A DNA stretch of 60,437 nucleotides from an uncultured Clostridia bacterium (GCA_947631975.1 CANRNM010000001.1:1-60437), one strand, 5' to 3'; shown: positions 30,616-58,088, numbered from the stretch's first letter. The notes: generated by a model not told the origin, from the letters alone. Made by a program: numbers and translations.

Positions 30616-30625
30616 GGACAAAATA

Positions 30626-32077
30626 ATGTATTACATAGGCATAGATCTGGGCACCTCCTCCGTAAAGCTTCTGCTTCTCGGAGATGAGGGCGTCCAAAAT
30701 ATAGTTACAAGAGAATATGCCGTCAGCTACCCCAAAGCAGGCTGGTCGGAGCAGTCTCCCGAGGATTGGCTGAGGGAGACATTGTCGGGCATAAAGGAGC
30801 TCACAAGGGATATCGACAAAAAGCTTGTGAAGGGTATAGGCATAGGCGGACAGATGCACGGGCTTGTCATGCTCGATGAAAATGATGATGTCATACGCCC
30901 TGCCATACTGTGGAACGATACCAGAACGCAGAAGGAGACGGATCATCTCAACAATGTAATAGGCAAGAAAAGGCTTGTGGATCTAACGGGCAATATTGCC
31001 TTTGCGGGCTTCACGGCGCCTAAAATAATGTGGGTGAGGGATAACGAGCCCGAAAATTTCGGAAGGATAAGCAAAATCATGCTCCCCAAGGACTATATTG
31101 TCTATAAGCTCACGGGCAAGCACTGCACCGATGTTTCCGATGCCTCGGGTATGCTCCTTCTGGATGTACACAGCAGGCGTTGGTCGGAGGAAATGCTCAA
31201 AATAACGGGAATAAAAGAATCACAGCTTCCTAAGCTTTATGAAAGCTATGAAGTTGTGGGACAGCTTACCGAAGAAACAGCCAAGGAGCTGGGCTTCGGC
31301 GAAGTAAACGTTGCTGCGGGAGCAGGGGATAACGCCGCAGCCGCAATAGGCACGGGCACAGTCAAAAACGGCGACTGCAATATATCTCTCGGCACATCCG
31401 GCACGGTGTTCGTAGCCTGCGCCAATTACAAAGCGGATTACGAAAACGCCATACACAATTTCTGCCATGCAAACGGAGCTTATCACTATATGGCTTGTAT
31501 GCTTTCCGCCGCAAGCTGCAATAAGTGGTGGCTTGAGGATATCATAGGCACGGACGACTATACCGAGGCATATGCCGATTATGATATCTATAAAGACAAC
31601 GGCTTGATTTTTCTCCCTTACATGATGGGGGAGCGCTCGCCTCATAACGATTCCGAAATAAGAGGTATGTTCTACGGTCTCGGCATGTCGACAACAAGGA
31701 AGGATATGTCCGTTGCCGTGCTTGAAGGCGTAGCCTTTGCTCTTAGACAGAATATTGATATTATTAAAAAAATGGGTATTGATATAAAAAAGAGCAGGAT
31801 ATGCGGCGGCGGCACCAAAAATAAGCTCTGGCTCAAAATCATTGCAAGTGTACTGAATATAGAGCTTGAGGTCCCCGAAAATCAAGAGGGAGCTTCATTC
31901 GGCGCAGCGCTTCTGGCAGCAAAGGGCAGCAGCGAAGCTGACTATAAAAAAGCAATGGATGATATTAAAATAAAAGAGGTCATAAAGCCCGACAGCAGGC
32001 TTGCGGAAAAGTACAACGGCAAATATGAGCTGTTTGTAAAGCTCTATCCTGCGGTAAAGGGCGCAATAAGCAAATAA
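30626..32077 (+). CDS. xylB: Xylulokinase (FGGY carbohydrate kinase)
   Basis: MYYIGIDLGTSSVK N-terminus, GGQMHGLV and GGGTKN motifs. It lies immediately downstream of xylA. Confidence 0.9.
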   Translation: MYYIGIDLGTSSVKLLLLGDEGVQNIVTREYAVSYPKAGWSEQSPEDWLRETLSGIKELTRDIDKKLVKGIGIGGQMHGLVMLDENDDVIRPAILWNDTRTQKETDHLNNVIGKKRLVDLTGNIAFAGFTAPKIMWVRDNEPENFGRISKIMLPKDYIVYKLTGKHCTDVSDASGMLLLDVHSRRWSEEMLKITGIKESQLPKLYESYEVVGQLTEETAKELGFGEVNVAAGAGDNAAAAIGTGTVKNGDCNISLGTSGTVFVACANYKADYENAIHNFCHANGAYHYMACMLSAASCNKWWLEDIIGTDDYTEAYADYDIYKDNGLIFLPYMMGERSPHNDSEIRGMFYGLGMSTTRKDMSVAVLEGVAFALRQNIDIIKKMGIDIKKSRICGGGTKNKLWLKIIASVLNIELEVPENQEGASFGAALLAAKGSSEADYKKAMDDIKIKEVIKPDSRLAEKYNGKYELFVKLYPAVKGAISK

Positions 32078-32082
32078 ATAAA

Positions 32083-32124
32083 AACGGCTCTATAGGGCAT
32101 ATTCCTATAAAGCCGTTATTTTTA
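32083..32124. terminator. Bidirectional intrinsic terminator between convergent xylB and the aldo/keto reductase gene
   Basis: A 13-bp stem AACGGCT(C)TATAGG / CCTATA(A)AGCCGTT with one mismatch, followed by ATTTTTA. Confidence 0.6.
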
Positions 32125-33147
32125 TACCTTCACCTTGCCCGCAAGCACCTGCTTGTAGTCCTCATAATTGACCTTCAGAAGCTCGGGTGTATTCAGCTCA
32201 TACGGGCATTTGGATTTGCACTGTCCGCAGTTTATACATTTTTCTATCTGCTTCATGTTTTCCTGCCATGTTTCATTGAGCCATGCTTTTGATGGCGCTC
32301 TCCTTAGCATAAGCGACATTCTGGCGCAGTTGTTTATCTGTATGTTCATTGGACAGGGCATGCAGTATCCGCAGCCACGGCAGAAATTACCGCTGAGCTC
32401 CGCCTTGTCTTTGTTTATAGCCTCCATTATTTCCTCGGTCATTACGGGAGTGTCATCCATGTACGAAAGCCACTCCTCAAGCTCATTTTCGCGCTGTATT
32501 CCCCATATGGGCATTACATTGTCATATTGACCTATAAAGGCGTAAGCCATGCGCGAATTTGTTATTATACCTCCCGCAAGAGCCTTCATGGCTATAAAGC
32601 CCATATTCTTTTCTTTGCACTTAGCGGCAAGCGCAAGCTCTCTTTCGCCGGAAAGATAGCTGAAGGGAAACTGCAGGGTCTCATACAAGCCGGATCTGAT
32701 TATTTCCTCCGCTATGCCTATCTTATGAGCGGTTATGCCTATGTGCCTTATAAGCCCCTGACGCTTGAAGTCCTCCATAAGCTCATACATTCCTGTTCCG
32801 TCGCCGGGAGCATAACAGCAGTCAACGCAGTGGAACTGATAAATGTCTATATAGTCGGTCTTAAGCAGCTTGAGAGACTCCTCAAGCTGTTTTTTCATGT
32901 CCTCTGTGTTTTTAGCCATTGTCTTTGTGGCAATAAATATATTTTTTCTCACATCGGACAGTGCAAGACCTACCTTTTCCTCGCTGTCGGAATAAGCCCT
33001 TGCGGTATCAAAGAAAGTTATTCCGCCTTCATAGGCTCTTTGCAGTATCCTGACAGCGGTATCAATATCGTCGCGCTGTAAGGGCAAAGCGCCAAAGCCG
33101 TTTTGAGCGGAGCTTATGCCCGTGCTTCCCAGAATAATTTTTTTCAT
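32122..33147 (-). CDS. Aldo/keto reductase fused to a C-terminal 4Fe-4S-type cysteine-cluster domain
   Basis: The AKR N-terminal body (GFGALPLQR, FFDTARAYSDSE, ITAHK) is followed by CRGCGYCMPCP and CINCGQCKSKCP. The ATG at 33147 is preferred, with GGAG 8 nt upstream. Confidence 0.8.
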   Translation of the reverse strand: MKKIILGSTGISSAQNGFGALPLQRDDIDTAVRILQRAYEGGITFFDTARAYSDSEEKVGLALSDVRKNIFIATKTMAKNTEDMKKQLEESLKLLKTDYIDIYQFHCVDCCYAPGDGTGMYELMEDFKRQGLIRHIGITAHKIGIAEEIIRSGLYETLQFPFSYLSGERELALAAKCKEKNMGFIAMKALAGGIITNSRMAYAFIGQYDNVMPIWGIQRENELEEWLSYMDDTPVMTEEIMEAINKDKAELSGNFCRGCGYCMPCPMNIQINNCARMSLMLRRAPSKAWLNETWQENMKQIEKCINCGQCKSKCPYELNTPELLKVNYEDYKQVLAGKVKV

Positions 33148-33219
33148 ATGTATCACTCCTTAAATATAGACCTTATTAATATAATTATACATTCTGTCCG
33201 TTGTTTTGGCAATATATTT

Positions 33220-33846
33220 TTATTCTTGAGTGATAGTTGTTTCGCTGTTTGTATGCTGCCTTCCTTCGTGGTCTATGTAATAGTTTTCTCTCAAAATAAG
33301 CTCGCTTACGGGCACTATTTCATAGCCCTTCTCCTTAAGACCCTTTATTATGGTATCAAGCACATCCGGAGTATATTTTGCGTCATTGTGAAAAAGTATT
33401 ATAGAGCCGTCTCCCAGATGCTTGTGATTGAGCACCTGATTTGTCTCATGCTCCGCTCCCAGCTCTTTCCAGTCTAAGCTGTCGATATCCCATTGTATCG
33501 GATAATATCCACATTCTTCCGCAGCCGTAAGCACCGTGTCATTGTATTCGCCGAACGGCGGACGGTATAATATGGGCTCCTCATTTATAAGCTCCTTTAT
33601 CTTATTGTGGCATTCCATAATATTCTTTTTGTTGTCCTCAAGGCTCAGCTGTGAACTGTGCGGGTGAGTGTTGCTGTGATTCCCCACATCGTGCCCGCTT
33701 TCGTATATCTTTTTGACCTCCTCGGGATATTTGTCCACCCAGTAACCGCAGAGGAAAAATGTCGCCTTGACATCATTCTTGTCTAAAATATCAAGTAATG
33801 TGTCCGTGTCCTCCGCTCCCCAAGGAGCAGGTAATATAAGAAGCAA
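33220..33846 (-). pseudogene. 3' fragment of a NodB-type polysaccharide deacetylase gene, cut by the island insertion
   Basis: Homology begins at ...WGAEDTDTLLDILDKNDVKATFF and includes HDVGNHSNTHPH, RPPFGEY and ILFHND. It has no signal/TM region, no NodB motif 1 and no ATG; the tracked start is a TTG inside the element arm. Confidence 0.8.
33813..33843. repeat. Left island junction: shared core CCGCTCCCCA plus a 20-bp terminal inverted-repeat arm
   Basis: The core at 33813-33822 is identical to 50480-50489 and 54793-54802. The arm GGAGCAGGTAATATAAGAAG (33824-33843) is the 18/20 reverse complement of CTTCTCATATTACCCGCTCC at the right junctions. Confidence 0.75.
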
Positions 33847-33958: not shown

Positions 33959-34339
33959 TTAATAATAACCTTCTGCGCCGAAAAGTATACTTTCAACATT
34001 ATTGTTGGGTGCGTAAATACCCACAGATGATTTTACGCTGATGTAGCTGTCATCTTTCTTTTCCAAATCCTTAAACATTTTTTTGGCATTTTCAATATTG
34101 GAAGGAAATACAAGAATATTGTCGACAACTACCTCTGCATCAAATATTTCTATTGCTTCGCATTTGTCATTTTCATCATAGAATACATGGCAGAAGCCAA
34201 AATCATCAGTTGTGTTTACGCTGTACTTTGACTTTTTAAACTCCTTTGCTTCGCCGAGTATCTGTCTTACTTCGGCTCTGTTCATTCCAAATTTTACGCC
34301 GTTGACTTCTTTTAATGGTATTGCTGTTATCTTATACAT
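33959..34339 (-). CDS. Putative immunity protein for the upstream toxin
   Basis: 126 aa, small and acidic. Its start overlaps the toxin stop (ATGTATAA) and GGAGGG lies upstream, the usual arrangement for toxin-immunity pairs. No family was recognised. Confidence 0.5.
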   Translation of the reverse strand: MYKITAIPLKEVNGVKFGMNRAEVRQILGEAKEFKKSKYSVNTTDDFGFCHVFYDENDKCEAIEIFDAEVVVDNILVFPSNIENAKKMFKDLEKKDDSYISVKSSVGIYAPNNNVESILFGAEGYY

Positions 34340-35270
34340 TTAATTTGCCCTCCGTTTCAATTTTATCAATGTATTCATTCATTTCATTTATTGCATCATC
34401 ATACTTGCTGCCAAATTTGTCATGTATATCGTCTATATCCATCTGAACGGCATCTCGGAACTTTCCCTGCTCTATAAGCTTCTTTTGCTCCGCCCTATAA
34501 TCACAGGCCTCTTTGGAACTGCCGCAGCTTGCAGTTTGTCTGTGGTCTTCTTTTTCCATTTTTATGGAAGGTCCGTCATTTTTTTCAAGAGGCGATATGC
34601 TGTCAGCGGGAATATGATGTACTTCATACTTATCGCCTTCACCTTCTTTGTATACATCACCGTAGCTTCCGCCGATTTTTTCAACATTCTCGGTAACCTT
34701 TGTATTTTCAAAAGCCTTTGTTGTTTTATCAATTGCATCAGATGTTTTCAAATCCTCCTGTGTTGGGGCTAATTCTCTGTTATCGCCCAAAAGTATGTTT
34801 TCAACATCTTTTGAAAAATCTCCTCGCTGAGGCATACTGCTGTTTTCCGGATTATTGATTATATCCTCCGGATTCAGCAGGTCTTTTACGGTATTAGCTA
34901 TTCCCCCTACAACATTAAGTGCAATAGCGTTTTCGGGATCATCCTTTGCCACATCTTCTTTAATTTCCTGCGCTGCGGCTCTTTCAATACCATCTGTAAG
35001 ATTTTTTATGTTATCACCTAAATCAGAATGGGAGTTTTCTATTCCTATAGTCTTTTTCAGAATCTCTTCCATAACGTTGGTTACAGAAACATTTTCAGGA
35101 TCATACTTAGCCATTTCATTTGTTATTCTCTGACCTCCTGTTTTAGCTATTTCTTTTACTCCTTTTTGTGCACATTCCTTTACACCTTCCTTTATAGCTT
35201 CATTAGTGCCTATTTCCGCCGTTATTTTAAGACCGGTAGCTATTATTGCATCATCAATTCCAAAAGCCAT
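34332..35270 (-). CDS. Putative toxin/effector: helical N-terminal region plus a C-terminal xHH (HNH/EndoVII-like) module
   Basis: The C-terminal ~110 aa contain YEVHHIPADS...KEDHRQTAS...YRAEQKKLIEQGKF, resembling the AHH/LHH/SHH nuclease toxin domains of polymorphic toxins. The ATG at 35270 is preferred over the tracked TTG at 35282. Confidence 0.5.
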   Translation of the reverse strand: MAFGIDDAIIATGLKITAEIGTNEAIKEGVKECAQKGVKEIAKTGGQRITNEMAKYDPENVSVTNVMEEILKKTIGIENSHSDLGDNIKNLTDGIERAAAQEIKEDVAKDDPENAIALNVVGGIANTVKDLLNPEDIINNPENSSMPQRGDFSKDVENILLGDNRELAPTQEDLKTSDAIDKTTKAFENTKVTENVEKIGGSYGDVYKEGEGDKYEVHHIPADSISPLEKNDGPSIKMEKEDHRQTASCGSSKEACDYRAEQKKLIEQGKFRDAVQMDIDDIHDKFGSKYDDAINEMNEYIDKIETEGKLNV

Positions 35271-35272
35271 AA

Positions 35273-38200
35273 TTAATGCCAACCTCCTTTTATATTATAG
35301 AAAAATTGCTCGCAGTTTTCAAGTCTTTTATTATCCAGACTTACCAGATTGCTGATAATTATTGCCAGAATAGCAGGACTTAAGCTATCTGTTTCATCTG
35401 TTTTTTCAATATTTGTATATAAGGCATCTTGCCACTTTTTATAGAAACTTGTATTTTCAGATTTTATTTTCAGTTTTTCCTTGTTATTTTCTATATCGGC
35501 CAATATTTCACCCATTTTATCATTAAAGCAAAGCTTGTATATCAGTTTTCCTTTCTGATTGATTGTAAGCTCAGCTTTATTGATTTTATAGGTTTCAAGC
35601 ATAAGCTTATAATTTATAGGAATATGCAGATTCATAATTTTTTCAGTTTCAAGCTCATCAATTTTTTCATAGTTATTTCTGAGCAATGCAAGAACTATAT
35701 CAGCAGAAGTCCTCTTGATATCTCCCATTTCATTTATAAGCTTGTCCCTGTAATTTGACATATTGGTATTGTCATTCGGTGTATCAGCCTTTTTTTCTGC
35801 CATTTTTACTTTACACAATACAGGGGATATCCATTCATTCTGATATATAACACCTACACCCTGACCGAGCCTTGGTATTTCATCAATCTGCTCATCGCTC
35901 AGATTTACGGATTTACCTACAAGCTCCCTGTCAGAATAATCGGGAAGGCTCATAATAATTTTTGTGTTTGTATTTCGTATAACAGACAGATCCAGCTTGC
36001 CCGGAGATTGGTCTGCTATTATAAAGCCTTCTCCGTATGTACGCATTTCGGCTATAGCGTTGGATATCATTTCAACAGATTTGCCGATAAGGTTTGAGCC
36101 TTCTGTATTCTGCTCATCGGATGTTCTCTTCAGCAGATTGTGGGCCTCCTCCAGCACTGTAATATGCTTAAGTTCCTTCTCTCCATTCTGACCGAAATAA
36201 TTTTCCTGAATTTTCATAACTATTACACCCATAATAAGAGCCTTAGTTTCTGCAGAGCCAACCTTACTGAGGTCAATTATGGTCGGGGCTTTTATTATCT
36301 CGTTGAAATCAATTTCTTTGTTTGAAAATACTACACCGTTGATTCCGTTTGTCAACGACCTTACTCTTGTAACCAAAGCTCCCTTATAGTTGCTCTTGTT
36401 TTCATCAGAGTAATCGGAACTGTCCATAACGATATGAAGCTGATTCAAAAGCTCCTGAAAGTCCGGGAATATATTACCATACCTGTTTTCGGAAAGCACT
36501 AGATCCCAACCTGCAGCCTCATAGGCTTTTTCCATAGCATCCTTCAGGACAGCAGGCATAGCGGCATACATAGGCCAACAAGCATTGAAGATTTCAACAA
36601 GTCTGTCTATATGCTCATTTACAAGAATTTTATCTGCAGGAAAGCTGAAAGGATTGATTTTTAACAGCTCAGCATCTCTGTAATTTGTACTGTATGTCTT
36701 TATATTTCCAATATCGCCGAATTCCTTTCTGTATTCTCCCTTTGCAGGTTCAACAACAAGAAATGGGATTCCTTTATTGTTTGCTTCTCTTAATATCTTA
36801 TATATGGTTGTAGATTTACCGGAGCCTGTAGAACCGGTAATAAATGTATGCCTTGTCAGGCTGTCGGCATTCAGATATACTTCTGTATTTTCCTCCTTGT
36901 GCATATGGTAAATGCTGCCAAGATTTAGTTTTTTGTTGTTCTCTTTTGTCAGATTGTCCTTCTCATATATATTTCGTTCAAAGGCTGCGCACTTCATACA
37001 GGTCAGACCTGCAACTGAGCTGTAGGGAAAAGCCATCATACTGGCAAGGTCGATAGATGACACATATGTTGTGGGAGTGATACACTCTATATCTGTGAGC
37101 TCGACTTTATCCTTATCCTTTTCATCAAATCTATTAACATCATCAGTATTAAAAAAAACAGGATGGGTAAAATGGCTTACAAAATCCCTTATATGTCTGA
37201 ATGTATTTTCTTTTGAGGCATTATCTCCGGTATCTGCCCATGTATTTATGACAGCAGCTTCGGTATAGGATTCATCTCCCTGCATAAGTCCCATATAATA
37301 ACCCGCAACCTTATTAGCGGTAAGGGAATTGTGAGCGAATATATATGACGCTTCTCTCCATGCGCCTACAGCCTCACATTCATTAAGCTTTTTAATATGC
37401 TCGTCTATTCTTTCCATAAGGTTTTTGACAGGGTATGAGGTGTATGTACGGGTCTCTCCTGTTGAGTTTTCTGTACCGATGCAATGATTTGAGCTATATC
37501 CTATGGACTTGCTGTTGCTTTCGCCCTCTACCTTTGTTTTGCTGTGTTGAAATCCGGCAGACAGACCGATAGAGCCCTGCTTACTCTTTGTTTTAACTAT
37601 GTCTTTTTTTATGGGATTAATAAGAGTTTTTATAAAAGCCCTAGCCCAACCCATACCGGTTGTTCCTCCGATAGGTGTAGATATTGAGTTTCCACTTGTA
37701 TAATTTGATCCGATAGAAAAACCGTTTGTCCTTGCAATAGAACTGTTTGTGCCATGGGTGTTTGTAAGAGAAGAACCATCTCCCCAGTTTTCACTTTTCC
37801 CCTTGGTTTCCGTGACCTGCCATTCCTTAAATTCTGAAACATTGGAGGCTATTTCCTCATAGCCGTTTCGTATATCCATAAGAGCTTCGTAGCTTATGGA
37901 CTCAGCCAATATCACAATAGTATATTCATTTTCTTCTTTTTCAGGCACAATACCATTCAATAATTTTTCTATTCCTTGACTCTTAAATTTTTCGGATTTT
38001 TCCGATGCAATATTGGTTATTACAGATACAACTTTTTTATCATTCAGTCCTGCAATATCCGAAGGGTCATCATGAAATTTTTCTGTTACTGTGCCCGGAA
38101 AATTTCCTTTTATTGTCGCTTCAAGCTTATTTATACCTTCTTCTGCTGCTTTGTGTCCACCGCCTGAATACATAGAATCATTTTTAAACACAAAATAAAA

Positions 38201-38533
38201 TTCTGCACCGGTGCAAAGCCTTTTTATTACCATAGCAATACTTTCACCGCTATTCATAAAAGAATTGTAAATGTTTTTAAATCTTTCTACAATATCCTCT
38301 TTTTCATCATATACCCAGCTTTTTATTCTTATTGCGCCTATATTATTATTACAGGTTACTCTTTTAAATTTTTTTATTTTATTCTCTTCCTTTTTTTCAT
38401 AGGTATTATAGGTGTTAAAATCAGCCACAGTATAACTATTCTCTAAATTATGAATGTTAAATTTGTAAACAGAGCTGCGTATTACATCCAAATTACTGTT
38501 TATTTTTGCAAGATTTGTATTTTTATCTGCCAT
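35273..38533 (-). CDS. 1086-aa protein: unrecognised ~550-aa N-terminal half plus a HerA/FtsK-superfamily (DUF87-like) P-loop ATPase
   Basis: Walker A FITGSTGSGKSTT, Walker B HITVLEEAHNLL, and FIIADQSPGKLDLSVIRNTNTKIIMSLPDYSDRE, a HerA-type motif set. The N-terminal half includes a G/S/T/N-rich stretch and no motif I recognise. Confidence 0.7.
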   Translation of the reverse strand: MADKNTNLAKINSNLDVIRSSVYKFNIHNLENSYTVADFNTYNTYEKKEENKIKKFKRVTCNNNIGAIRIKSWVYDEKEDIVERFKNIYNSFMNSGESIAMVIKRLCTGAEFYFVFKNDSMYSGGGHKAAEEGINKLEATIKGNFPGTVTEKFHDDPSDIAGLNDKKVVSVITNIASEKSEKFKSQGIEKLLNGIVPEKEENEYTIVILAESISYEALMDIRNGYEEIASNVSEFKEWQVTETKGKSENWGDGSSLTNTHGTNSSIARTNGFSIGSNYTSGNSISTPIGGTTGMGWARAFIKTLINPIKKDIVKTKSKQGSIGLSAGFQHSKTKVEGESNSKSIGYSSNHCIGTENSTGETRTYTSYPVKNLMERIDEHIKKLNECEAVGAWREASYIFAHNSLTANKVAGYYMGLMQGDESYTEAAVINTWADTGDNASKENTFRHIRDFVSHFTHPVFFNTDDVNRFDEKDKDKVELTDIECITPTTYVSSIDLASMMAFPYSSVAGLTCMKCAAFERNIYEKDNLTKENNKKLNLGSIYHMHKEENTEVYLNADSLTRHTFITGSTGSGKSTTIYKILREANNKGIPFLVVEPAKGEYRKEFGDIGNIKTYSTNYRDAELLKINPFSFPADKILVNEHIDRLVEIFNACWPMYAAMPAVLKDAMEKAYEAAGWDLVLSENRYGNIFPDFQELLNQLHIVMDSSDYSDENKSNYKGALVTRVRSLTNGINGVVFSNKEIDFNEIIKAPTIIDLSKVGSAETKALIMGVIVMKIQENYFGQNGEKELKHITVLEEAHNLLKRTSDEQNTEGSNLIGKSVEMISNAIAEMRTYGEGFIIADQSPGKLDLSVIRNTNTKIIMSLPDYSDRELVGKSVNLSDEQIDEIPRLGQGVGVIYQNEWISPVLCKVKMAEKKADTPNDNTNMSNYRDKLINEMGDIKRTSADIVLALLRNNYEKIDELETEKIMNLHIPINYKLMLETYKINKAELTINQKGKLIYKLCFNDKMGEILADIENNKEKLKIKSENTSFYKKWQDALYTNIEKTDETDSLSPAILAIIISNLVSLDNKRLENCEQFFYNIKGGWH

Positions 38534-38557
38534 AACTGTATTCTCCTTGTTTATTGT

Positions 38558-38929
38558 TTATAATCTTAAGAATAATAAAATAATCAGTATGAGCATAAAA
38601 ACAGCTATTATTATCTTATAAATCGAACTGACAATTTTTTTGTTCCTTAATTTATTACATACTAAATATAAATGTTTGATATAATCGGCGCTTATATCTC
38701 CCAGAGCAATTCCGTTTAAAATATGATTTACATATTGCTTGTCCCATTCGTTTTCGGATTTGACCTTAATATTAGAGTCTCTTTGTATTTTGTTTTGTTT
38801 TACCAGAAGATCTAAAAGACCGCAGAGCTCTTCATAGGAAATTTCACCGTTGCTGATGTCGTGGCATAGATCCAATATACCCTCGCTTAAAGTTACATCA
38901 TTAAAATACTTTTTATATAGATCTGTCAT
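38558..38929 (-). CDS. Small tail-anchored membrane protein
   Basis: 123 aa, soluble and helical at the N-terminus, with a single C-terminal hydrophobic helix IYKIIIAVFMLILIILLFL. It lies between the GTPase and ATPase genes. Confidence 0.6.
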   Translation of the reverse strand: MTDLYKKYFNDVTLSEGILDLCHDISNGEISYEELCGLLDLLVKQNKIQRDSNIKVKSENEWDKQYVNHILNGIALGDISADYIKHLYLVCNKLRNKKIVSSIYKIIIAVFMLILIILLFLRL

Positions 38930-38977
38930 AGTGCATTCCTCCTATATAAATATGTGTTGTTAAAAAGATAAAAATAT

Positions 38978-41395
38978 TTATTCAGATACAGAGATCCCCC
39001 ATATTTTGTTATTTAGTTCCTCGGATTTCTTATCAATTTCAGTAAGTATATTTTCATACATTTGAATATCTTTTTGAAGTTTATCTTTATTTTCTGCGTA
39101 TTGTTTTAATTCTCCGGAAAATGTTTTTAAATCTTCTTTAGATTGTTCATGTATTTTGTTCAAAGCATCCAGGTATATATCATTTATATTGTTTTTAAAT
39201 GCAGAAAAATATCTATCCATTAGTTTCCTGTATCCTTTTAAAACATTATTTTTGTATTTTTTTCTGTCTACAAAAATAAACCATTTTCTGACATCTTGCA
39301 AATCAGGATATGATATTTGTTCAGGATATTGTGGATTATAATAAGTAATCAATTTGCCCCAATGATCTTCAGATATGTTAGCTCTAATTATATTATGAAT
39401 TTTATTATTTATATTACTTATTTTATCATCAATAATGTCTTTCCTTGTTTCATTATACTTTTCATTAATCTCATCAACATATTTTTCTATTTTCTTTAAT
39501 ATTTTCTCTGAATTTTTTTCATATCCTATTGCTATACGCGGTATTTTTTTGTCTAAAAATTTATCAAATTCTTCTGTCTTTGAGTCAAAAAATAAATGTA
39601 AACCATCTAAATCAATAATATATTTGTCAGAATTGTTTATTTTCTTTTCTTTTTCAAATAATGAGTCTAATTCACCAATTAGTTTATTTTCTACATAATT
39701 GGCCATTCTTTCTATGTTTGACTTATCTTCTGTGCTTATACTTTTTTTACTTTCATACTCGTTTTTAGCCAATTCTATAATTTTATTGGCACTGTCATAA
39801 ATAATATTTGCCTTTACGGAAAGTGCATATTTTACAGCGTAGTTTTTAATTTCATCTTCTAAGGCAAACATACCGGAATTGATAAAAGTTTCCCTATGGA
39901 TATCATTTTCTCTATGGGCACTTTCAGCTTCTTCTTCGCATTTGTTTTTAAGTTTGATGGTCGCATTTTCTGCTTCGGCAAGTTTATTAAATCTATAATA
40001 TTTTCCGCTGCCGTCATTATGCTCATTATTGACAGTCGGATAGAGCCTGTTCTTGTTTCTCTCATCGTTTTGGGTATTTAGTCCCTTTTTCATGATACGG
40101 CTTGTATATGCCGCAAGAGCAGACACAAACAACAGCCTTTCTTTTGAAAGATCTATTGTTGTTTTGTTGCCTGTTGTTGGTTCTTTAAACTCTATTTGTC
40201 TGTTTTTTAGTTCTTTAATATCTTCATCTATGTTATTTATCTCATCTGTCCTGTTTATAACATGGATAGATCTTGAGATATCAATAGAGGTGTTGTTTTC
40301 ATCTTTGTTGTTTTTAAAATTTGTTATAATATTATATAATAAATTATTTCCGGAGCCTTCTGTTTTTGTTGGGTGATAAACTACAACAAGTATGGAATGA
40401 GTTTGCTTTTTCAGAGCGTTTTCAAGTATCTCGGAATGTTCATCCGAATTGCTGTCGGTACCTGGAGTGTCATATATAACAAAATTGTATTTATCATTAC
40501 ATATATCCATAGGGTAAAAAACGGTTACTACATTATCAATGTATTCGTCATTATTTTGGTCAAGTTTATTTGGCATATCATTAATATATTTTAATATATG
40601 ACATACATGCTGATAACGATACTTACTGTGAAAATTATTTGTTGCTTCGGTAATATGGCTGAGTAATTTAGAGTTTTTTAACTGACTTTCAATTATAAAT
40701 TTATTGTTTTTTCCTGACCATATAAGCTTAACACTGTTTTTTGTCAAATCTTTTCTGATATCAAAACATATACGGACTTCTTTTTTTGAATTTATTATTT
40801 TTGTAATCTTGCCTGTTTCAGATATGGTCGATTCCGGCAAAATAGCCTCTCCTATTAAAGTATTTATGAGTGTGGATTTTCCGGAACTATATACTCCAAC
40901 GAAGCATATATTTACATCATTTTCAGAAAACTCACCGATCATTTTATTAAGCCTATTCTTTGTTCTGTCATATTTTGTGCCTTTTTTATTAAGATCGAAG
41001 TCATCAAAATATTTTATGATATCGCCATAAAAATGACGTATGTCTTGATATATATTCTCAACATCAGGCAATTTTATAAAATCTTCTTTAAGATTTATAA
41101 GGTTTTGATGTTTACTGTCGTTATAAAATTTTACCATGTTTTTAAAATCCTCATAGTCTGCCGCAGTTCCTCTATATGTAATATCCATCGGATTTCCGTT
41201 ATTATAATTAATTATTGCTTGAAAAAAATCATTTCCTTCATTTTGAAGCAAAAAATCGCCTGTTTTGTTTATATATTCTTCCAGTTCACCGCTGTACTTT
41301 GAACGTATCTCTTGCCAGTTTTCGTTGTTCTTTTCAGAAAAAATCACCTGTTTTTTTACCGGATGATAGGTAACTAAAATTTCATTGGATGACAT
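38978..41395 (-). CDS. Dynamin-like large GTPase (bacterial dynamin-like protein family)
   Basis: G1 GVYSSGKSTLIN, G3 VIYDTPGTD and G4-like INRTDE, preceded by a ~150-aa N-terminal domain and followed by a ~400-aa K/E/N-rich helical stalk. Confidence 0.7.
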   Translation of the reverse strand: MSSNEILVTYHPVKKQVIFSEKNNENWQEIRSKYSGELEEYINKTGDFLLQNEGNDFFQAIINYNNGNPMDITYRGTAADYEDFKNMVKFYNDSKHQNLINLKEDFIKLPDVENIYQDIRHFYGDIIKYFDDFDLNKKGTKYDRTKNRLNKMIGEFSENDVNICFVGVYSSGKSTLINTLIGEAILPESTISETGKITKIINSKKEVRICFDIRKDLTKNSVKLIWSGKNNKFIIESQLKNSKLLSHITEATNNFHSKYRYQHVCHILKYINDMPNKLDQNNDEYIDNVVTVFYPMDICNDKYNFVIYDTPGTDSNSDEHSEILENALKKQTHSILVVVYHPTKTEGSGNNLLYNIITNFKNNKDENNTSIDISRSIHVINRTDEINNIDEDIKELKNRQIEFKEPTTGNKTTIDLSKERLLFVSALAAYTSRIMKKGLNTQNDERNKNRLYPTVNNEHNDGSGKYYRFNKLAEAENATIKLKNKCEEEAESAHRENDIHRETFINSGMFALEDEIKNYAVKYALSVKANIIYDSANKIIELAKNEYESKKSISTEDKSNIERMANYVENKLIGELDSLFEKEKKINNSDKYIIDLDGLHLFFDSKTEEFDKFLDKKIPRIAIGYEKNSEKILKKIEKYVDEINEKYNETRKDIIDDKISNINNKIHNIIRANISEDHWGKLITYYNPQYPEQISYPDLQDVRKWFIFVDRKKYKNNVLKGYRKLMDRYFSAFKNNINDIYLDALNKIHEQSKEDLKTFSGELKQYAENKDKLQKDIQMYENILTEIDKKSEELNNKIWGISVSE

Positions 41396-41450
41396 AAAGA
41401 TCCCTCCTATATATTGATATAATTAATTATTTGTATCTTCCACATGAAAA

Positions 41451-42401
41451 TTACAATATTTTAACATAATCTCCCTGGCTTTTCAACCACATATCTACAC
41501 CCTTGCCAAATACCTCGGCTCTTATTGTATACACGCCGTTATCCTCCTTTTCTATTATGGCTGTGGGCAGTCTGTCCATAACAGCCTCGACTGAGGGTCC
41601 GCTGAATTCAAAGCGCACGGTCCTGAGCCTTCCGCCATACATAAACTGAACTCTCTTCCTGAACTCGCCCTCCTGAAATCTTTTGGCATAAGGCATGCTG
41701 AAGTGTTCATCGGTTATTCTGTAGTTCAGTATCCTGTCTATGCGGTAAATTGTGGGGTAGGGGTCTTCACTGTTTTCAAAGTGAGTCTTCTTGTCTATGT
41801 CCTCTATATAAGCAGGCATATAGAAATAGAACTCTGAAAACATAACGCCTGCGGGAAGCACTTTTCTTTTTGATACCTTTCCGTCAAGGCGCTTATAGCT
41901 TATCTCAAGCTTTTTCTTTTCATTCAAAGCACGGGTGATATCCCATATTTTCTCAATAAGCTTCTGTTTGTGAGAAAGCTCGGCGTAATAAAATTTTTCA
42001 TTGGCGATAAGCTTCTCTATTGTATTTATATCCGAAGGCGGTACGCAGTTTTGTATTACCTTATCCAGAATTGACGAAAGCTCTTCTTTGGTAAACGCTC
42101 TGCTTTCCAGTAATATCTTGCTAAGAGCATATACCTCACTGCTTGACATCTGCTTGCTGTTCTCGTAATAGAGATAATAGCCGTTTATTTTTCTGTCATA
42201 TATAAGCTCCTGTCTGTTGCCCGTTCTTGTTCCTCTTCCTTCAAAGAACGCCCTGAGGTCCTCAATATCTCTCTGTACGGACCTTTCGTTTATTCCGTAG
42301 CGCTGAGCCTCTGTTCTTTTATTTATGACCTCTCCGTCTGTAAGACGCATGCACATATCCAATATTCTGTTGTGTTTCGCCGAGCTTTCAGCAGTATTCA
42401 T
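41451..42401 (-). CDS. HTH + WYL domain transcriptional regulator
   Basis: An N-terminal DeoR/YafY-like HTH (ILDMCMRL...INERSVQRDIEDLRAFF) and a C-terminal WYL-type half (TIYRIDRILNYRITDEHF..., then VRFEFSGPSVEAVMDR). Confidence 0.75.
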   Translation of the reverse strand: MNTAESSAKHNRILDMCMRLTDGEVINKRTEAQRYGINERSVQRDIEDLRAFFEGRGTRTGNRQELIYDRKINGYYLYYENSKQMSSSEVYALSKILLESRAFTKEELSSILDKVIQNCVPPSDINTIEKLIANEKFYYAELSHKQKLIEKIWDITRALNEKKKLEISYKRLDGKVSKRKVLPAGVMFSEFYFYMPAYIEDIDKKTHFENSEDPYPTIYRIDRILNYRITDEHFSMPYAKRFQEGEFRKRVQFMYGGRLRTVRFEFSGPSVEAVMDRLPTAIIEKEDNGVYTIRAEVFGKGVDMWLKSQGDYVKIL

Positions 42402-42681
42402 ATATATTTCTCCTTTTTGCAGTATTATCTTTTGAATTAATTATAGCAAAAGTCCATAGACACCCCGTGTCGTTACTGCAAAAAAATTTGTTAAATTATA
42501 AATTATTATTAAAGTATACTTTATCGGGATATGTAATAATACACATAATTCTGGTACAAGTATACTCTTTTTTTGTAAAAAAGTCAACAAAAAAAGGGTG
42601 TTTACCGATGGTTATGTACAGTTGTCAAAAAGTATATTTATTTTTATATAACAGTAATAATAAATAGAAAGGTGTGATATT

Positions 42682-43761
42682 ATGAATAGTTTTATTCATA
42701 CATTCAGTTTCAGAAAAAATATAACTTATGATGAAAACTGTAAAATTATGGAAAGATATAATAGCAGCATTATAAGGAAAGACAGTATTTATTATATAAA
42801 TCAATATAGTAATAATGGAGTTCGACTTTATATAACAGACAGAAGTAAAAATGAAGTAAAGTATGATAAAAATCATTTTATAAAAAGGATGGAGATAATT
42901 ATAACACCATATAAGCTATGTCATGCCGGTGAAGCAATGGGATGTGTTAAAGACTATAAAGAAATGACAGCTGCCATCAAAAAGCTTTATTATATATTGG
43001 ACAGTATGAGTATGGAAACAGGAGTGGATTTTAATAATAATATAACTCTGTCAAGAATAGATATTACTCACGATGTGTTTACCCCTAATGCGTTTTATTC
43101 GGATGAAATAATAAGAATAGCAAAACTATCTAAACTTAAACACGGTTATAAATTTTGGATAAAACCGGATAAAGGTCATTATAAAAATATATTTGAAGAT
43201 AAATACATAACTTCATATGCAAATAATCATCAAGGTATAGCGGTTAAGATATATAACAAAAGCTATGAGCTTGAATCAAAAGGTATATCTAACAAGTGTG
43301 AAAATTCAAATATAGTTAGATTTGAGGTTACACTCAAAAAGAAATTCCTTAAAAACAATAAATATCTTCAACGCCTAGAAAAGGGCATCCCATTAGAGCA
43401 TATGCTGTGGTATATAACGCAAAATGCAGATGATTTCTTGCAGAAATATATATCCGATGTTATGCCGGATGGTCATATGCTCTCCCATGAGAAACTGACG
43501 GAATATATTTTTAATGTATGTGGTAAAAAGATAAAAAAGGCAAAAAAGATGTTGTGTTATTCTATGCTGTTCACCAATAAAAAAGCCCTTGACAGTTATG
43601 GCAGCAAAAAAATGCTTGCAAAGGTTAAGTTATATTTTGAAAAAATAGGGGTATCTCCTATTTATCTTAATAATGGCTGTGATTTCATACCTTCTTTTAA
43701 GGCTATGCTCACAGATGATTACATTTATGACGATAAAGGATATAATAATACTCTGAAATGA
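42682..43761 (+). CDS. Rep_trans-like rolling-circle initiator / MOB_T-type relaxase candidate
   Basis: 359 aa with LSRIDITHDV, AVKIYNKSYELE and IVRFEVTLKK, reminiscent of the RxDxaxD / YxK / RxE blocks of the replication-initiation-factor family. This rests on motif resemblance only. Confidence 0.4.
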   Translation: MNSFIHTFSFRKNITYDENCKIMERYNSSIIRKDSIYYINQYSNNGVRLYITDRSKNEVKYDKNHFIKRMEIIITPYKLCHAGEAMGCVKDYKEMTAAIKKLYYILDSMSMETGVDFNNNITLSRIDITHDVFTPNAFYSDEIIRIAKLSKLKHGYKFWIKPDKGHYKNIFEDKYITSYANNHQGIAVKIYNKSYELESKGISNKCENSNIVRFEVTLKKKFLKNNKYLQRLEKGIPLEHMLWYITQNADDFLQKYISDVMPDGHMLSHEKLTEYIFNVCGKKIKKAKKMLCYSMLFTNKKALDSYGSKKMLAKVKLYFEKIGVSPIYLNNGCDFIPSFKAMLTDDYIYDDKGYNNTLK

Positions 43762-47940: not shown

Positions 47941-47982
47941 TAATATGAATAATAAAATTTATATGTCTACAAAAAAAATTAA

Positions 47983-58080: not shown

Positions 58081-58088
58081 TATTTTAA

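Follow-up and report, generated by a model that had tools for sequence, protein, structure and literature searches.

Gene content of the locus

The locus occupies positions 33959–42401 of the window, by which we mean the whole stretch of DNA that was analysed (60,437 nt). It consists of six ORFs, all on the minus strand, which an earlier reading made from the sequence alone (here called the sequence-only reading) had described as a six-gene conflict system at the left end of an integrated island. The coordinates, spacing and overlaps given there all proved correct. The features are listed below in the order of transcription, with the basis for each assignment in parentheses.

42559..42587, minus strand: promoter-like site TTGACT-17-TATACT, intergenic, upstream of the WYL gene (consensus match only)
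41451..42401, minus strand: gene 1, HTH + WYL transcriptional regulator, 316 aa, first gene of the cluster (Pfam and PADLOC profiles)
38978..41395, minus strand: gene 2, dynamin-like GTPase, 805 aa (Dynamin_N profile and G motifs)
38558..38929, minus strand: gene 3, tail-anchored small membrane protein, 123 aa (hydropathy and HMM of positional homologues)
35273..38533, minus strand: gene 4, giant HerA/VirB4-type P-loop ATPase, 1086 aa (DUF87/HerA profiles, AF2 and Foldseek)
36914..38533, minus strand: N-terminal half of the ATPase, residues 1–540, the family signature (phmmer)
37463..37798, minus strand: insertion in the ATPase, residues 246–357, candidate membrane-interacting element (AF2 and composition)
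35804..36916, minus strand: DUF87/HerA-VirB4 ATPase domain, residues ~540–910 (profiles, invariant residues, Foldseek)
34332..35270, minus strand: gene 5, polymorphic toxin, 312 aa from the ATG at 35270 (SD and start; position and co-variation in relatives)
34335–34709, minus strand: C-terminal toxin domain, 125 aa (invariant E-x-H-H-x-P and D-H-x-x-T)
33959..34339, minus strand: gene 6, cognate immunity protein, 126 aa (start overlaps toxin stop; co-variation with toxin)

The gaps between genes 1 to 4 are 55, 48 and 24 nt, in that order. The stop codon of the ATPase (TAA, 35275–35273) is followed 2 nt further on by the toxin ATG at 35270, before which stands AAAGGAGG as an SD sequence, and we infer that the toxin gene is translationally coupled to the ATPase gene. 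The toxin ORF extends over 34332–35282, giving 316 aa if read from a TTG and 312 aa from the ATG, and its stop overlaps the start of the immunity gene in ATGTATAA (34339–34332). GC content falls from 0.41–0.49 left of 34 kb to 0.25–0.39 within the module and stays low until the end of the window, in agreement with the proposed left end of the island, which also carries a large serine recombinase, AbiH, a TOTE-type AEP-helicase-PLD gene and a Fic gene. The promoter-like site at 42559..42587 is a suggestion only: such sites number 43 in the region as a whole, against 39.9 ± 5.9 in shuffled sequences, which is no excess.

Profile searches bore out the HTH+WYL, dynamin and HerA/DUF87 assignments of the sequence-only reading, and the motifs that it quoted for the GTPase, the ATPase and the toxin are all present in the translations. 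The regulator matches Pfam WYL (1.5e-7) and, weakly, HTH_11, as well as the PADLOC WYL models (1.6e-19 and 3.2e-16), and is 39% identical to the equally placed WYL gene of a related locus, L001. In the GTPase, Pfam Dynamin_N matches residues 163–341 (2.7e-17; 63.7 bits against a cut-off of 27), leaving flanking regions of approximately 160 aa N-terminal and 460 aa C-terminal to it. This profile, with the motifs G1 GVYSSGKST, G3 DTPG and G4-like NRTD, identifies gene 2 as a bacterial dynamin-like protein (DLP). Gene 3 is tail-anchored, as had been proposed: it has a single C-terminal hydrophobic segment (residues 103–121, mean Kyte-Doolittle 3.09) and a cytoplasmic domain with a conserved EW-x3-Y motif. 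No family in Pfam, NCBIfam or PADLOC matched it; 39 positional homologues were used to build an HMM, which finds the family in about 41 loci and recognises the window protein with E 4.8e-29.

The ATPase combines a single DUF87 domain with an N-terminal half peculiar to the family, an insertion rich in Ser, Gly, Thr and Asn, and a helical C-terminal domain that varies. Its motifs GSTGSGKST (Walker A), VLEEAH (Walker B) and IIADQSPGKLD...NTNTKIIMSLPD are confined to residues ~560–865; the domain also carries an IRNTNTKI motif, and its invariant residues are G567, T569, G572, K573, E795, E796 and R853–K858. The ATPase matches Pfam DUF87 (5e-17); its matches to PADLOC HerA (1e-23) and mad8 (1e-20) cover residues 521–917 only, and a match to FtsK_SpoIIIE (0.0098) covers only the P-loop. 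The AF2 model has a mean pLDDT of 81.8 and a pTM of 0.76. Foldseek matches it to HerA (4d2i, E 4e-16), to SIR2-HerA and DUF4297-HerA, and to the C-terminal domain of VirB4 (4ag5, TM 0.78 on target), and the predicted fold thus belongs to the HerA/VirB4 clade. The N-terminal half matches nothing in Pfam or PADLOC. In a phmmer search of 1.84 billion representatives it gave 591 matches with E<=1e-3 and 396 with E<=1e-10, and most of the full-length matches are 1000–1250 aa long. The ATPase homologues form 309 clusters.

Hydropathy reveals no hydrophobic or transmembrane helix in the window ATPase. The insertion is modelled by AF2 with a pLDDT <50, with strands at 257–271, 329–343 and 357–365 and a helix at 295–308. 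It is predicted to form long β-hairpin arms tipped by an amphipathic helix (GMGWARAFIKTLINPIKKD), which makes it a candidate for interaction with the membrane. Across the family the insertion is rich in S (16%), G (13%), T (13%) and N (7%). Its tip is a hydrophobic, glycine-zipper-like 17-mer (KD>=1.2) in 45 of 116 ATPase homologues, 19 of which reach >=1.6; the tip in the window ATPase is amphipathic, not hydrophobic.

The toxin has an N-terminal amphipathic helix, a low-complexity region of about 190 aa with repeated (D/N)PE(N/D), and the 125-aa C-terminal domain. Its C-terminal 119 aa are 70% identical to those of the L001 toxin, while the N-termini are unrelated. The toxin-domain family comprises 281 clusters of 65–77% identity, the matches listed all being short proteins. 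The AF2 model of the domain (pLDDT 89.8) has a strand-strand-helix that bears EVHH and DHRQT. No HNH-family or other Pfam profile matched the toxin, even at E<=10, nor did any NCBIfam or PADLOC family, and a PDB sequence search was likewise without a match. Foldseek gave nothing significant (best E 3.7), the weak matches including HNH-bearing Cas9, TasH and PtuB entries. By its sequence relatives, the toxin domain belongs to a conserved family outside Pfam. The motif YEVHHIPAD...DHRQT is present as the sequence-only reading described it; the HNH class that it had been taken to indicate found neither a profile match nor a significant fold match, and the label ‘HNH-like’ is plausible but unproven.

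The immunity protein is 47% identical to the product of the gene following the L001 toxin, and has only a weak, sub-threshold match to DUF7738 (3.7e-4). Its homologues form 262 clusters, close to the number for the toxin domain, and there are contigs common to both. Neither protein matches a curated toxin or immunity family in Pfam, NCBIfam or PADLOC; their roles in the window are assigned because of their position, their co-variation, and their replacement by known families in close relatives.

The module in other genomes and its variable payload

At least 502 species carry relatives of the ATPase, distributed over Bacillota (including Streptococcus sanguinis, salivarius and suis), Coriobacteriia, Bifidobacterium, Treponema, Brachyspira and Elusimicrobia. 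The gene order is nearly constant in loci from Bacillota, Actinomycetota, Spirochaetota and Elusimicrobiota: a dynamin-like GTPase, optionally a tail-anchored protein, the ATPase, a protein of 170–330 aa and one of 90–150 aa. Searches seeded with the toxin or the immunity gene recover the same picture. In 68 of the 82 non-duplicate loci the three genes preceding the ATPase include one for a DLP of at least 700 aa, and the similarities of ATPase and GTPase are correlated (Spearman rho 0.66, 2278 locus pairs), indicating at the sequence level that the two co-diversify. Brachyspira relatives have three tandem dynamin genes, and hydrophobic segments are found in the Brachyspira DLP and in small-GTPase variants. 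A survey of GTPase-ATPase co-occurrence had been suggested by the sequence-only reading as a check on chance juxtaposition. This is now excluded, because the order is kept in about 80 other loci, and the module is conserved and co-inherited. The idea of a fixed set of six genes did not hold: an upstream WYL gene is present in only about a quarter of the related loci (~19/84), and the tail-anchored protein in about half, being missing from the ‘long ATPase’ group, for example in Streptococcus. These two are accessory parts, and the conserved core is the GTPase (or GTPases), ATPase, toxin and immunity genes.

The families found at the last two positions support the assignment of genes 5 and 6 as toxin and immunity. 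The 75 proteins at the gene-5 position include Colicin-DNase and WHH (25), LHH (15), Endonuclea_NS_2 (12) and Ntox15 (2); the 69 at the gene-6 position include SUKH-1 (21), SUKH_6 (20), SUKH_5 (18), DUF6985 (12), YezG (6), Tdi1 (2) and PoNi (1). The toxin domains fall into ten clusters, which correspond almost 1:1 to clusters of immunity proteins. The toxin N-terminal regions form one linked cluster (69/77), combined with every toxin type, and their motif type tracks the type of apparatus (33/42 versus 5/35), whereas ATPase and toxin-domain similarities are uncorrelated across loci (rho 0.04). Exchange can be seen directly in pairs of close relatives. L012 and L013 have ATPases 92.7% identical and toxins that are 85% identical over the first 60 aa and 22% over the last 110 aa, with immunity proteins at 16%; in L052 and L053 the ATPases are 98.5% identical and the toxin and immunity proteins unrelated; in L003 and L066 the corresponding figures are 86% for the ATPase, 72% for the toxin N-terminus and 37% for its C-terminus. 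Several loci have a second toxin-immunity pair.

These sequence comparisons show that the variable payload of the module consists of genes 5 and 6, for a nuclease-type polymorphic toxin and its cognate immunity protein; that genes 2–4 (with the tail-anchored protein where present) are a conserved, co-evolving apparatus; that the toxin C-terminal domain is exchanged by recombination jointly with the immunity gene; and that the short disordered toxin N-terminal region goes with the apparatus type. The pair had been described as ‘embedded’ in the system, and instead is a payload that the conserved genes appear to serve.

Possible functions of the module

A GTPase and an ATPase adjoining a swappable nuclease toxin and its antidote are therefore probably a toxin-delivery route rather than phage defence. 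The reading that we favour, by a modest degree, is an ATPase- and GTPase-dependent apparatus for export or delivery of interbacterial nuclease toxins, in a widespread polymorphic toxin system. The ATPase would form a ring at the cytoplasmic membrane and engage the toxin via its N-terminal helix and short repeated motifs. It would then strip off or leave behind the immunity protein and drive the toxin from the producer, with the Ser/Gly/Thr-rich β-hairpin insertion and its amphipathic or glycine-zipper tip giving membrane contact or passage. The tail-anchored protein may recruit the GTPase, which in other variants may instead attach through a hydrophobic segment of its own, and the GTPase may remodel or fuse the membrane where the ATPase sits. 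The toxin would enter neighbouring bacteria that have no immunity gene and degrade nucleic acid there. Where present, the WYL protein would repress the operon until a stress signal. Also in favour are the toxins' lack of an evident Sec signal, the absence of T7SS or T4SS genes nearby, and flanks made up mostly of housekeeping genes. There is a precedent in the HerA-FtsK-superfamily pumps of Gram-positive bacteria, which export nuclease toxins that have SUKH immunity proteins (PMC3113570). Links to the membrane are seen in the tail-anchored protein, the glycine-zipper insertion tips and the hydrophobic segments of some GTPases. Indirect support for killing of non-immune neighbours may be seen in an orphan immunity gene (L102) that is 60% identical to that of the window. 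It adjoins the last 37 codons of a toxin gene, has no ATPase or GTPase within 8 kb, and is listed in 75 collection blocks.

Some observations count against export. The role proposed for the insertion rests on a part of the model that has low confidence. The toxin and immunity proteins of the window match no curated family. About half of the systems, for example those of Streptococcus, have no protein with a clear transmembrane helix, and no channel is evident. Monoderm and diderm carriers share the gene set without outer-membrane parts, which is odd for a classical secretion machine.

The main rival, which we consider unlikely, is abortive infection or defence against mobile elements. The GTPase would sense membrane or infection stress, and the ATPase would load DNA or free the nuclease from the immunity protein, so that invading and/or host DNA is destroyed inside the producer, the pair being an interchangeable effector cassette. 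Dynamin-like GTPases (Eleos) and HerA ATPases (SIR2-HerA, DUF4297-HerA) are components of known defence systems, and the HerA proteins of the latter two complexes are structural neighbours of the ATPase here. Nearly all payloads are nucleases, which counts against export and fits the degradation of DNA by HerA plus nuclease, as in HerA-NurA and DUF4297-HerA. The same may be said of the WYL regulator, a class typical of defence operons, and of the AbiH, TOTE-type and Fic genes in the window island and GmrSD adjoining L001; defence also fits the half of systems that have no integral membrane protein. However, to our knowledge a dedicated immunity protein is absent from the known HerA and dynamin defence systems, whereas SUKH, YezG, Tdi1 and PoNi families pair 1:1 with the toxins here. 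The C-terminal displacement and the swapping of cassettes between apparatuses 92–98% identical are a signature of antagonism between strains, as are the tandem second pairs and the orphan immunity gene. The flanking genes in other genomes are mostly housekeeping, only a few of the 141 flanking proteins match defence models, and the PADLOC matches of the module itself are restricted to generic NTPase cores. A search of 2.9 million viral contigs yielded only 14 loci. The phage-defence framing of the sequence-only reading (BrxR/CapW, Eleos, SIR2-HerA) is thus the weaker one, and the pair behaves as a classical polymorphic toxin and immunity protein.

The missing channel and the indifference to envelope type would also be accounted for by sacrificial release as for colicins, although we think this improbable. 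Here a stressed subpopulation would express the operon, the ATPase insertion and the GTPase would permeabilise or vesiculate the cell's own membrane, and toxin-immunity complexes would leave by leakage, vesicles or lysis, with no dedicated channel. Glycine zippers, as at the insertion tips of 45/116 ATPases, are typical of membrane-depolarising toxins such as T7SS toxins (PMC10434224); WYL regulators often respond to DNA damage, as do colicin operons; and LeoABC dynamins have been linked to vesicle-associated toxin release in E. coli. On the other hand, a large P-loop motor coupled to the toxin gene, and toxin N-terminal motifs matched to the apparatus, suggest specific handling of the substrate and not bulk release. 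The module also has no lysis gene, and the amphipathic tip in the window argues in the same direction.

It is very hard to credit that the module serves maintenance or transfer of the island, with addiction as the task of the toxin-immunity pair and DNA transfer or partition as that of the ATPase and GTPase. The island around the module is indeed low in GC and encodes a large serine recombinase; some relatives belong to mobilisable elements that carry MobA/MobL, RepA_N and resolvase genes; and the ATPase resembles VirB4 and FtsK-type DNA pumps. Most loci nevertheless have housekeeping genes around them and neither a relaxase nor a recombinase close by (2 relaxases among 141 neighbours), and the remaining T4SS parts are absent. 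Addiction would leave unexplained both the constant-N/variable-C toxin and the chromosomal linkage to the ATPase.

If export is correct, the module may represent a new class of protein-export or toxin-delivery machine. We propose only tentatively that this comprises a HerA/VirB4-type ring motor, bound to the membrane via its own β-hairpin/glycine-zipper insertion, and a GTPase that remodels or fuses membrane, recognising short toxin N-terminal motifs and operating in both monoderms and diderms without Sec, T4SS, T6SS or T7SS parts.

Comparison with known systems

Among the closest known systems is T7SSb, in which LXG/WXG toxins are served by the EssC/YueA pump, a HerA-FtsK ATPase, with SUKH/YezG immunity and a role in competition (PMC3113570, PMC3482391). 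In both, nuclease toxins encoded beside a HerA-FtsK-superfamily ATPase have a targeting region at the N-terminus and a toxin domain that varies at the C-terminus, the immunity genes downstream are of SUKH or YezG type, the carriers include Gram-positive bacteria, and the role, which for the module is a probable one, is interbacterial competition. The module ATPase differs in having one DUF87/HerA-VirB4 domain, without FHA or transmembrane helices; the toxins have no LXG but a short disordered N-terminus with repeated short motifs; the constant partner is a dynamin-like GTPase; and spirochaetes and Elusimicrobia are also carriers. No WXG100/EsxA, EssA/B or EsaA was found in or near the loci. 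WXG100 and LXG are absent from the Pfam matches of the six module proteins, from the 14 families listed for the 75 toxins, and from the top 25 for the 141 neighbours. Identity with T7SSb is therefore rejected, given the absence of EssC-type FHA and multiple FtsK/SpoIIIE domains and of WXG100/LXG substrates.

T4SSs can deliver antibacterial toxins, and VirB3 is encoded immediately upstream of VirB4, much as the small membrane protein here is directly upstream of the ATPase, whose domain superposes best on the VirB4 C-terminal domain. The N-terminal half of the ATPase is, however, a separate family with no VirB4 profile match, and no T4SS is known to include a GTPase partner of this kind. The module contains no VirD4, VirB6, VirB8 or pilin genes, and most loci lack a relaxase. 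We reject this identity too, since there is only the VirB4-like fold, the other parts being absent from the module and most flanks.

Eleos and B. subtilis DynA are similar in placing a dynamin-like GTPase in a conflict locus, and the three tandem Brachyspira dynamins resemble LeoABC. Eleos itself is not known to include a HerA-type ATPase, toxin or immunity gene, and is rejected because the GTPase matches PADLOC LeoA only in the P-loop region, over residues 136–191 (4e-12), and LeoBC at 2.8e-4, with no full-length match. SIR2-HerA, DUF4297-HerA and HerA-NurA likewise couple a HerA-fold ring ATPase to an effector that degrades nucleic acid or NAD. The module ATPase is about twice as long, with its own N-terminal half and Ser/Gly-rich insertion, and the effector is a polymorphic toxin, a separate protein accompanied by a dedicated immunity protein; the HerA fold is present and there is no SIR2, DUF4297 or NurA partner in the module, so these systems are also rejected. 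Colicin and pyocin operons likewise encode an HNH or DNase toxin followed by an overlapping immunity gene, the domain in many relatives being Pfam Colicin-DNase, and by analogy a similar stress-type regulation is possible. Unlike colicins, the module toxins are short (170–330 aa), lack domains for receptor binding or translocation, are not accompanied by a lysis gene, and are linked to two large NTPases.

The toxins do conform to polymorphic toxins in the sense of Zhang/Aravind: the N-terminal region is kept while C-terminal domains are exchanged between related loci, and the immunity gene immediately downstream co-varies with the toxin domain. As the sequence-only reading had supposed, the combination is new in that no PADLOC, Pfam or NCBIfam model covers it and no paper describing it was found in the literature searched. 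The module is a widespread, apparently undescribed bacterial weapon locus.

The GTPase–ATPase core of the module

An ORF listing recovered all six minus-strand genes of the module (33959–42401) exactly where the sequence-only reading had placed them. Profile searches bore out its naming of gene 1 as a WYL regulator (Pfam 1.5e-7, PADLOC 1.6e-19), of gene 2 as a dynamin-type GTPase (Pfam Dynamin_N 2.7e-17, which exceeds the Pfam cut-off) and of gene 4 as a 1086-aa ATPase with HerA/DUF87 similarity only in its C-terminal half (Pfam 5e-17, PADLOC HerA 1e-23); all its DUF87/HerA matches in Pfam and PADLOC fall inside residues 521–917. Gene 3 (123 aa) has one hydrophobic helix, which is C-terminal, consistent with the tail-anchored protein it was said to be. 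Genes 3, 5 and 6 matched none of the curated families in Pfam, NCBIfam and PADLOC, with gene 6 showing no more than a sub-threshold match to DUF7738.

The intergenic gaps in the module are 55, 48 and 24 nt. After the ATPase stop (TAA, 35275–35273), the toxin ATG follows 2 nt on at 35270, preceded by AAAGGAGG, and ATGTATAA is common to the toxin stop and the immunity start. Stops and starts that lie so close together, or overlap, hint at translational coupling. The ORF lister begins gene 5 at a TTG (35282), giving a longer form than the ATG at 35270; relatives of gene 5 start like the ATG form (MAFG.., MEFG.., MAIEIAG..). A promoter and terminator scan of the region returned as many sites as in shuffled sequence, and we therefore claim no operon boundaries from it. 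Two strong matches could be candidate internal promoters, such sites being no commoner than in shuffles:

35294–35322, minus: sigma-70-like TTGAAA-17-TATAAT (11/12 consensus), in the ATPase 3' end, just 5' of the toxin
41458–41486, minus: sigma-70-like TTGAAA-17-TAAAAT, extended by TG, where the WYL gene ends, 5' of the GTPase

We also note an inverted repeat 3' of gene 6, spotted by eye, whose loop exceeds the length range of the scanner.

The ATPase has 309 homologue clusters in a set of 5.8 billion proteins; among the matches listed, most are near full length and the closest is 49% identical. A pattern scan of one genome per species confirmed relatives in at least 502 species. The hosts comprise Lachnospiraceae, Oscillospiraceae, Erysipelotrichaceae, Paenibacillus and Pelosinus; many species of Streptococcus, among them S. 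sanguinis, S. salivarius, S. suis, S. parasanguinis and S. rubneri; and Olsenella, Slackia, Coriobacteriaceae, Bifidobacterium ruminantium, Treponema, Brachyspira and Elusimicrobium.

Gene neighbourhoods were drawn from ORFs in 84 loci using a crude home-made caller, to which at least one apparent gene absence is due. The adjacency of GTPase and ATPase seen in the window proved to be real and is kept across loci: in 68 of the 82 non-duplicate loci, the three genes preceding the ATPase include a dynamin-like one of at least 700 aa. After the ATPase comes a gene of 170–330 aa (77 of the 84 loci), and then one of 90–150 aa (71 loci). The similarity of GTPases tracks that of ATPases over 2278 locus pairs (Spearman 0.66), and this co-diversification, with the conserved neighbourhood, rules out a chance juxtaposition. 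A WYL gene is present in just 19 or so of the 84 loci and the tail-anchored protein family in about half, and the core therefore consists of the GTPase, the ATPase and the two small genes. Of the six-gene module as first proposed, these four genes are conserved, but the WYL regulator and the tail-anchored protein are accessory.

Among 1.84 billion representatives, 591 are related to the N-terminal half of the ATPase, mostly as part of 1000–1250-aa fusions with the ATPase, and we regard this half as a signature of the family. The AlphaFold model of the protein is good overall, with a pLDDT of 81.8 and a pTM of 0.76. Foldseek placed the ATPase domain in the HerA/VirB4 clade (HerA 4d2i, E 4e-16; VirB4 C-domain 4ag5, TM 0.78 on target), with the HerA subunits of SIR2-HerA and DUF4297-HerA as further neighbours. 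The ATPase domain dominates the Foldseek result for the whole model, and the long alignments to full-length TrwK/VirB4 (rmsd 17–18 Å) were not counted as evidence on the N-terminal half. Residues 246–357 form an insertion, with a family composition of 16% S, 13% G, 13% T and 7% N, which is modelled at low confidence as long β-hairpin arms with a helix at the tip. The tip is hydrophobic and glycine-zipper-like in 45 of 116 homologues (for example IGGALGAVIGGAVGSVI) and amphipathic in the window's ATPase. Setting aside these tips and a paddle-like segment in Brachyspira, no clear transmembrane helix is seen in the ATPase or the large GTPase, and about half of the systems encode no protein with one. 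In systems without the tail-anchored family, a search for it as a fusion to some other gene gave just a weak match, to the C-termini of some Streptococcus dynamins (E 4.6e-7, 1.1e-6). Neither the GTPase nor the WYL protein had a useful match by sequence in the PDB.

ATPase residues 241–884 match NCBIfam NF033849 ('ser_rich_anae_1', 1163 positions) at 1.2e-17 and 62.7 bits, against a cut-off of 650. This partial match, far below threshold, suggests a second, related family of Ser-rich giant ATPases.

The apparatus (GTPase, tail-anchored protein where present, and ATPase) also occurs in variant forms, in the following loci from other genomes:

L086, 3618–11039; L105, 820–8387; also L106, L107, L064, L065 and L079: small-GTPase variant
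L087, 2532–10907: WYL gene; genes for 543-, 518- and 365-aa proteins; 727-aa DUF87 ATPase; window-type toxin and immunity genes
L003 (Brachyspira innocens), 3704–9370; also L066 and L077 (Brachyspira): three dynamin-family genes in tandem before the ATPase

In the first, two or three small P-loop GTPases (~340, 355 and 395 aa) take the place of the ~800-aa GTPase. They have weak Dynamin_N, AIG1 and septin-like matches, and one has a hydrophobic segment near residues 240–304. In L105–L107 the module is part of a mobilisable element that also encodes MobA/MobL, RepA_N, Toprim and resolvase, and the immunity protein of this variant is found in 332 blocks of the collection. No dynamin was recognised in L087, where the ATPase may have its N-terminal half encoded by a separate gene and the 518-aa protein has Sel1 repeats and one hydrophobic segment. 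In Brachyspira, the large dynamin carries the hydrophobic paddle-like segment, and the small membrane protein and the ATPase are separated by an additional ORF of 58 aa. Over its first 480 residues, the product of the 536-aa gene has 84% identity to that of the 798-aa gene, indicative of a recent duplication.

A variable toxin–immunity payload

Genes 5 and 6 had been read as a toxin and its immunity protein, and they are indeed a true pair, as judged by the replacement of families at both positions and by the pairing of toxin C-terminal clusters with immunity clusters. The 75 proteins at the gene-5 position include Colicin-DNase (25), WHH (25), LHH (15), Endonuclea_NS_2 (12) and Ntox15 (2) domains, with one NERD and one metallopeptidase-like domain. 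The 69 at the gene-6 position include SUKH-1 (21), SUKH_6 (20), SUKH_5 (18) and DUF6985 (12), and more rarely YezG-like (6), Tdi1 (2) and PoNi (1). Both sets are standard families for the toxins and immunity proteins of polymorphic toxin systems (PMC3113570, PMC3482391). Clustering gave ten C-terminal toxin clusters, each nearly 1:1 with an immunity cluster; the toxin N-termini form one linked cluster (69 of 77), joined to every toxin type.

This exchange can be followed between individual loci. Gene 5 of the window and that of the related locus L001 have only their last 119 residues in common (70% identity). Ruminococcus and Brachyspira have another last-119 stretch in common (66%), with ATPases just 42% identical, and gene 6 shows the same sharing pattern among these loci. 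In the pair L012/L013 the ATPases are 92.7% identical and the first 60 toxin residues 85%, but the last 110 are 22% and the immunity proteins 16% identical; the L012 toxin belongs to the window's family. L052 (S. sanguinis) and L053 have ATPases 98.5% identical and unrelated payloads, LHH vs Colicin-DNase. The Brachyspira loci L003 and L066 have ATPases 86% identical, with toxin N-termini at 72% and C-termini at 37%. Overall, how similar two ATPases are says nothing about how similar their toxin domains are (rho 0.04).

Tandem second pairs of toxin and immunity genes occur in several loci. In L026, L037, L043, L049 and L067 the second pair lies 3' of the first and encodes a ~225-aa toxin followed by a ~97-aa gene; the toxin has a DUF6782-type metallopeptidase-like domain (HELRHAWQ in L037) and is a non-nuclease, unlike nearly all first-position toxins. 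On an Oscillospiraceae chromosome (L102, 7888–8387; also L103 and L104) lies an orphan immunity gene with 60% identity to gene 6 of the window; related metagenome contigs carry it too, and it is listed in 75 blocks of the collection. Upstream of it are only the last 37 codons of the toxin and an rve integrase fragment, with housekeeping genes around, and there is no ATPase or GTPase within 8 kb. Judged from these comparisons, the payload varies in all the ways expected of toxins that strains use against one another.

In the window's gene 5, the last 125 residues fall in a tightly conserved family of 281 clusters, 65–77% identical, which contains no Pfam domain. Its relatives are short (105–220 aa in all matches listed), and the alignment has the invariant features E-x-H-H-x-P, G-P-x-I-x-M-x-K-x-D-H-x-x-T and MDIDD. 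With three toxin homologues as starting points, a DUF87 ATPase was found directly upstream of each. Gene 6 has 262 homologue clusters, near the count for the toxin, and largely on the same contigs. The AlphaFold model of the toxin domain is confident (pLDDT 89.8) and has two strands and a short helix carrying EVHH and DHRQT, followed by three helices. A profile search of the PDB found no significant neighbour, and neither did Foldseek (best E 3.7); no fold, HNH or other, can therefore be assigned. The weak Foldseek matches are mostly to HNH-domain-containing proteins, so that the description of gene 5 as HNH-like stands as no more than a reasonable guess.

Toxin N-termini are short, hydrophilic and of low complexity, with short motifs in tandem, and none has an evident signal-peptide-like hydrophobic N-terminus; those of the window's clade start with an amphipathic helix. 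The motifs are:

FDPDKR(I/V), in one to three copies
F-K-x-I-K-P-E, followed by EAKxFW
SKPLDFSNDG, in three copies
YDPENV, DDPENA, NPEDI and NPENS, in the window's toxin

Several toxin domains are joined to each motif type. Motifs of the FDPDKR and IKPE types are found in 33 of the 42 systems that lack the tail-anchored protein vs 5 of the 35 that have it, and this tracking of apparatus type is what an apparatus-specific targeting region would look like. What comparison of the loci shows is a GTPase–ATPase pair, conserved and co-evolving, tied to a variable toxin–immunity payload.

Genomic setting and possible modes of action

We lean, with a little better than even confidence, towards interbacterial toxin delivery by the GTPase–ATPase apparatus. 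The ring ATPase would handle the toxin via the toxin's N-terminal region, and the Ser/Gly-rich insertion would form a membrane contact or a path through the membrane. The GTPase would work on the membrane at the site of the ATPase, anchored by the small protein where present, and the toxin would then get to cells without immunity. The sequence-only reading is supported in part: it was apt in proposing an undescribed conflict system, but the evidence points to interbacterial delivery rather than to its phage-defence framing. Release by self-permeabilisation of the producer, as with colicins, would account for the indifference to envelope type; we consider it improbable.

In the window, the module is located at the left edge of a low-GC island. 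GC is 0.41–0.49 left of 34 kb, 0.25–0.39 within the module, and low up to the window end; the boundary lies between 33846 and 33959, and the right end past the end of the window. The remainder of the island (45005–59493) looks like a defence or mobile island, judging from its genes, and the left flank is ordinary chromosome:

29302–33846, left flank: xylose isomerase-like and xylulokinase-like ORFs (named by reading translations); aldo/keto-reductase-like ORF with a 4Fe-4S-type Cys motif; polysaccharide deacetylase (Pfam 4.5e-32)
45005–46597: large serine recombinase
46819–47940: AbiH
48118–48717: HTH gene
48977–49765: DpnII/MboI-like REase domain gene
50753–53773: TOTE-type AEP, helicase and PLD protein, 1006 aa
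57037–58080: Fic gene
58198–59493, minus: AAA_14/DUF4143 ATPase

A 359-aa ORF (42682–43761, plus) is divergent from the WYL gene and has no Pfam match at E ≤ 1e-3; between it and the recombinase gene there is a short AT-rich stretch.

This island context is one of several points in favour of the main rival reading, defence inside the producer cell, whereby a HerA-type motor and a nuclease would act on DNA with the immunity protein as a safety catch. The payloads are near-exclusively nucleases, the structural neighbours of the ATPase include HerA, a WYL regulator is present, and the system has no channel protein. Against it, defence-model matches are few among 141 proteins flanking other loci (AbiEi, type I REase, PtuA, PDC-S01/S02, mad3), which in the absence of a control set is just weak evidence. 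We hold this reading to be unlikely, although a good deal less so than release by self-permeabilisation. GmrSD adjoins the module in L001. The most recurrent Pfam families among the 141 proteins are mainly housekeeping (ABC transporters, ribosomal protein L10, MatE, V-ATPase, mannose-6-phosphate isomerase) and include no T7SS genes; two of the proteins are relaxases. A role in maintenance or transfer of the island is very improbable, as few loci fit it. A phage origin as the general case was rejected, there being only 14 relatives in 2.9 million viral contigs. With the 8.6-kb module as query, megablast found no match among PLSDB plasmids or INPHARED phages.

If the apparatus does export or deliver toxins, it would be a secretion route not recognised before, and bacterial dynamins would gain a first clear molecular role in warfare between bacteria. 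Among the carriers, which number at least 502 species, are bacteria that abound in the gut, rumen and mouth, and streptococci amenable to genetics (S. sanguinis, S. salivarius, S. suis and S. parasanguinis). Delivery would also enlarge the catalogue of competition factors that shape microbiomes by many so far unannotated nuclease toxins and immunity proteins, the 281-cluster Pfam-less family among them. Were the module to act in intracellular defence, it would be a new type that borrows toxin–immunity cassettes as effectors. On either reading, annotations such as 'hypothetical' and 'DUF87 domain-containing' become a testable system.

Relation to known systems

Full-text searches of 8 million open-access papers and 0.35 million preprints found nothing that links dynamin to DUF87; the papers that bring dynamin together with HerA, toxin and immunity, or with polymorphic toxins, were all unrelated. 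The claim that the system is undescribed agrees with this open-access literature, in which no account of dynamin, HerA/DUF87 and a toxin–immunity pair was found. On present comparisons the module is an undescribed, conserved conflict system with a true toxin–immunity pair.

By the comparative-genomic definition, the module counts as a polymorphic toxin system. The trafficking genes catalogued so far for such systems do not include those found here, and dynamin goes unmentioned in the 2012 survey (PMC3482391). There is a precedent for export in SUKH-guarded nuclease toxins exported by HerA-FtsK pumps in T7SS (PMC3113570). Every named system that was considered differs from the module in a defining feature. 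The module has none of the EssC architecture, WXG100 and LXG of T7SSb, and the ATPase fold is the sole feature that it has in common with T4SS. Its GTPase resembles Eleos in the P-loop region only, and the partner effector of SIR2-HerA, DUF4297-HerA and HerA-NurA is absent. Toxin export is the function that we infer for the apparatus.
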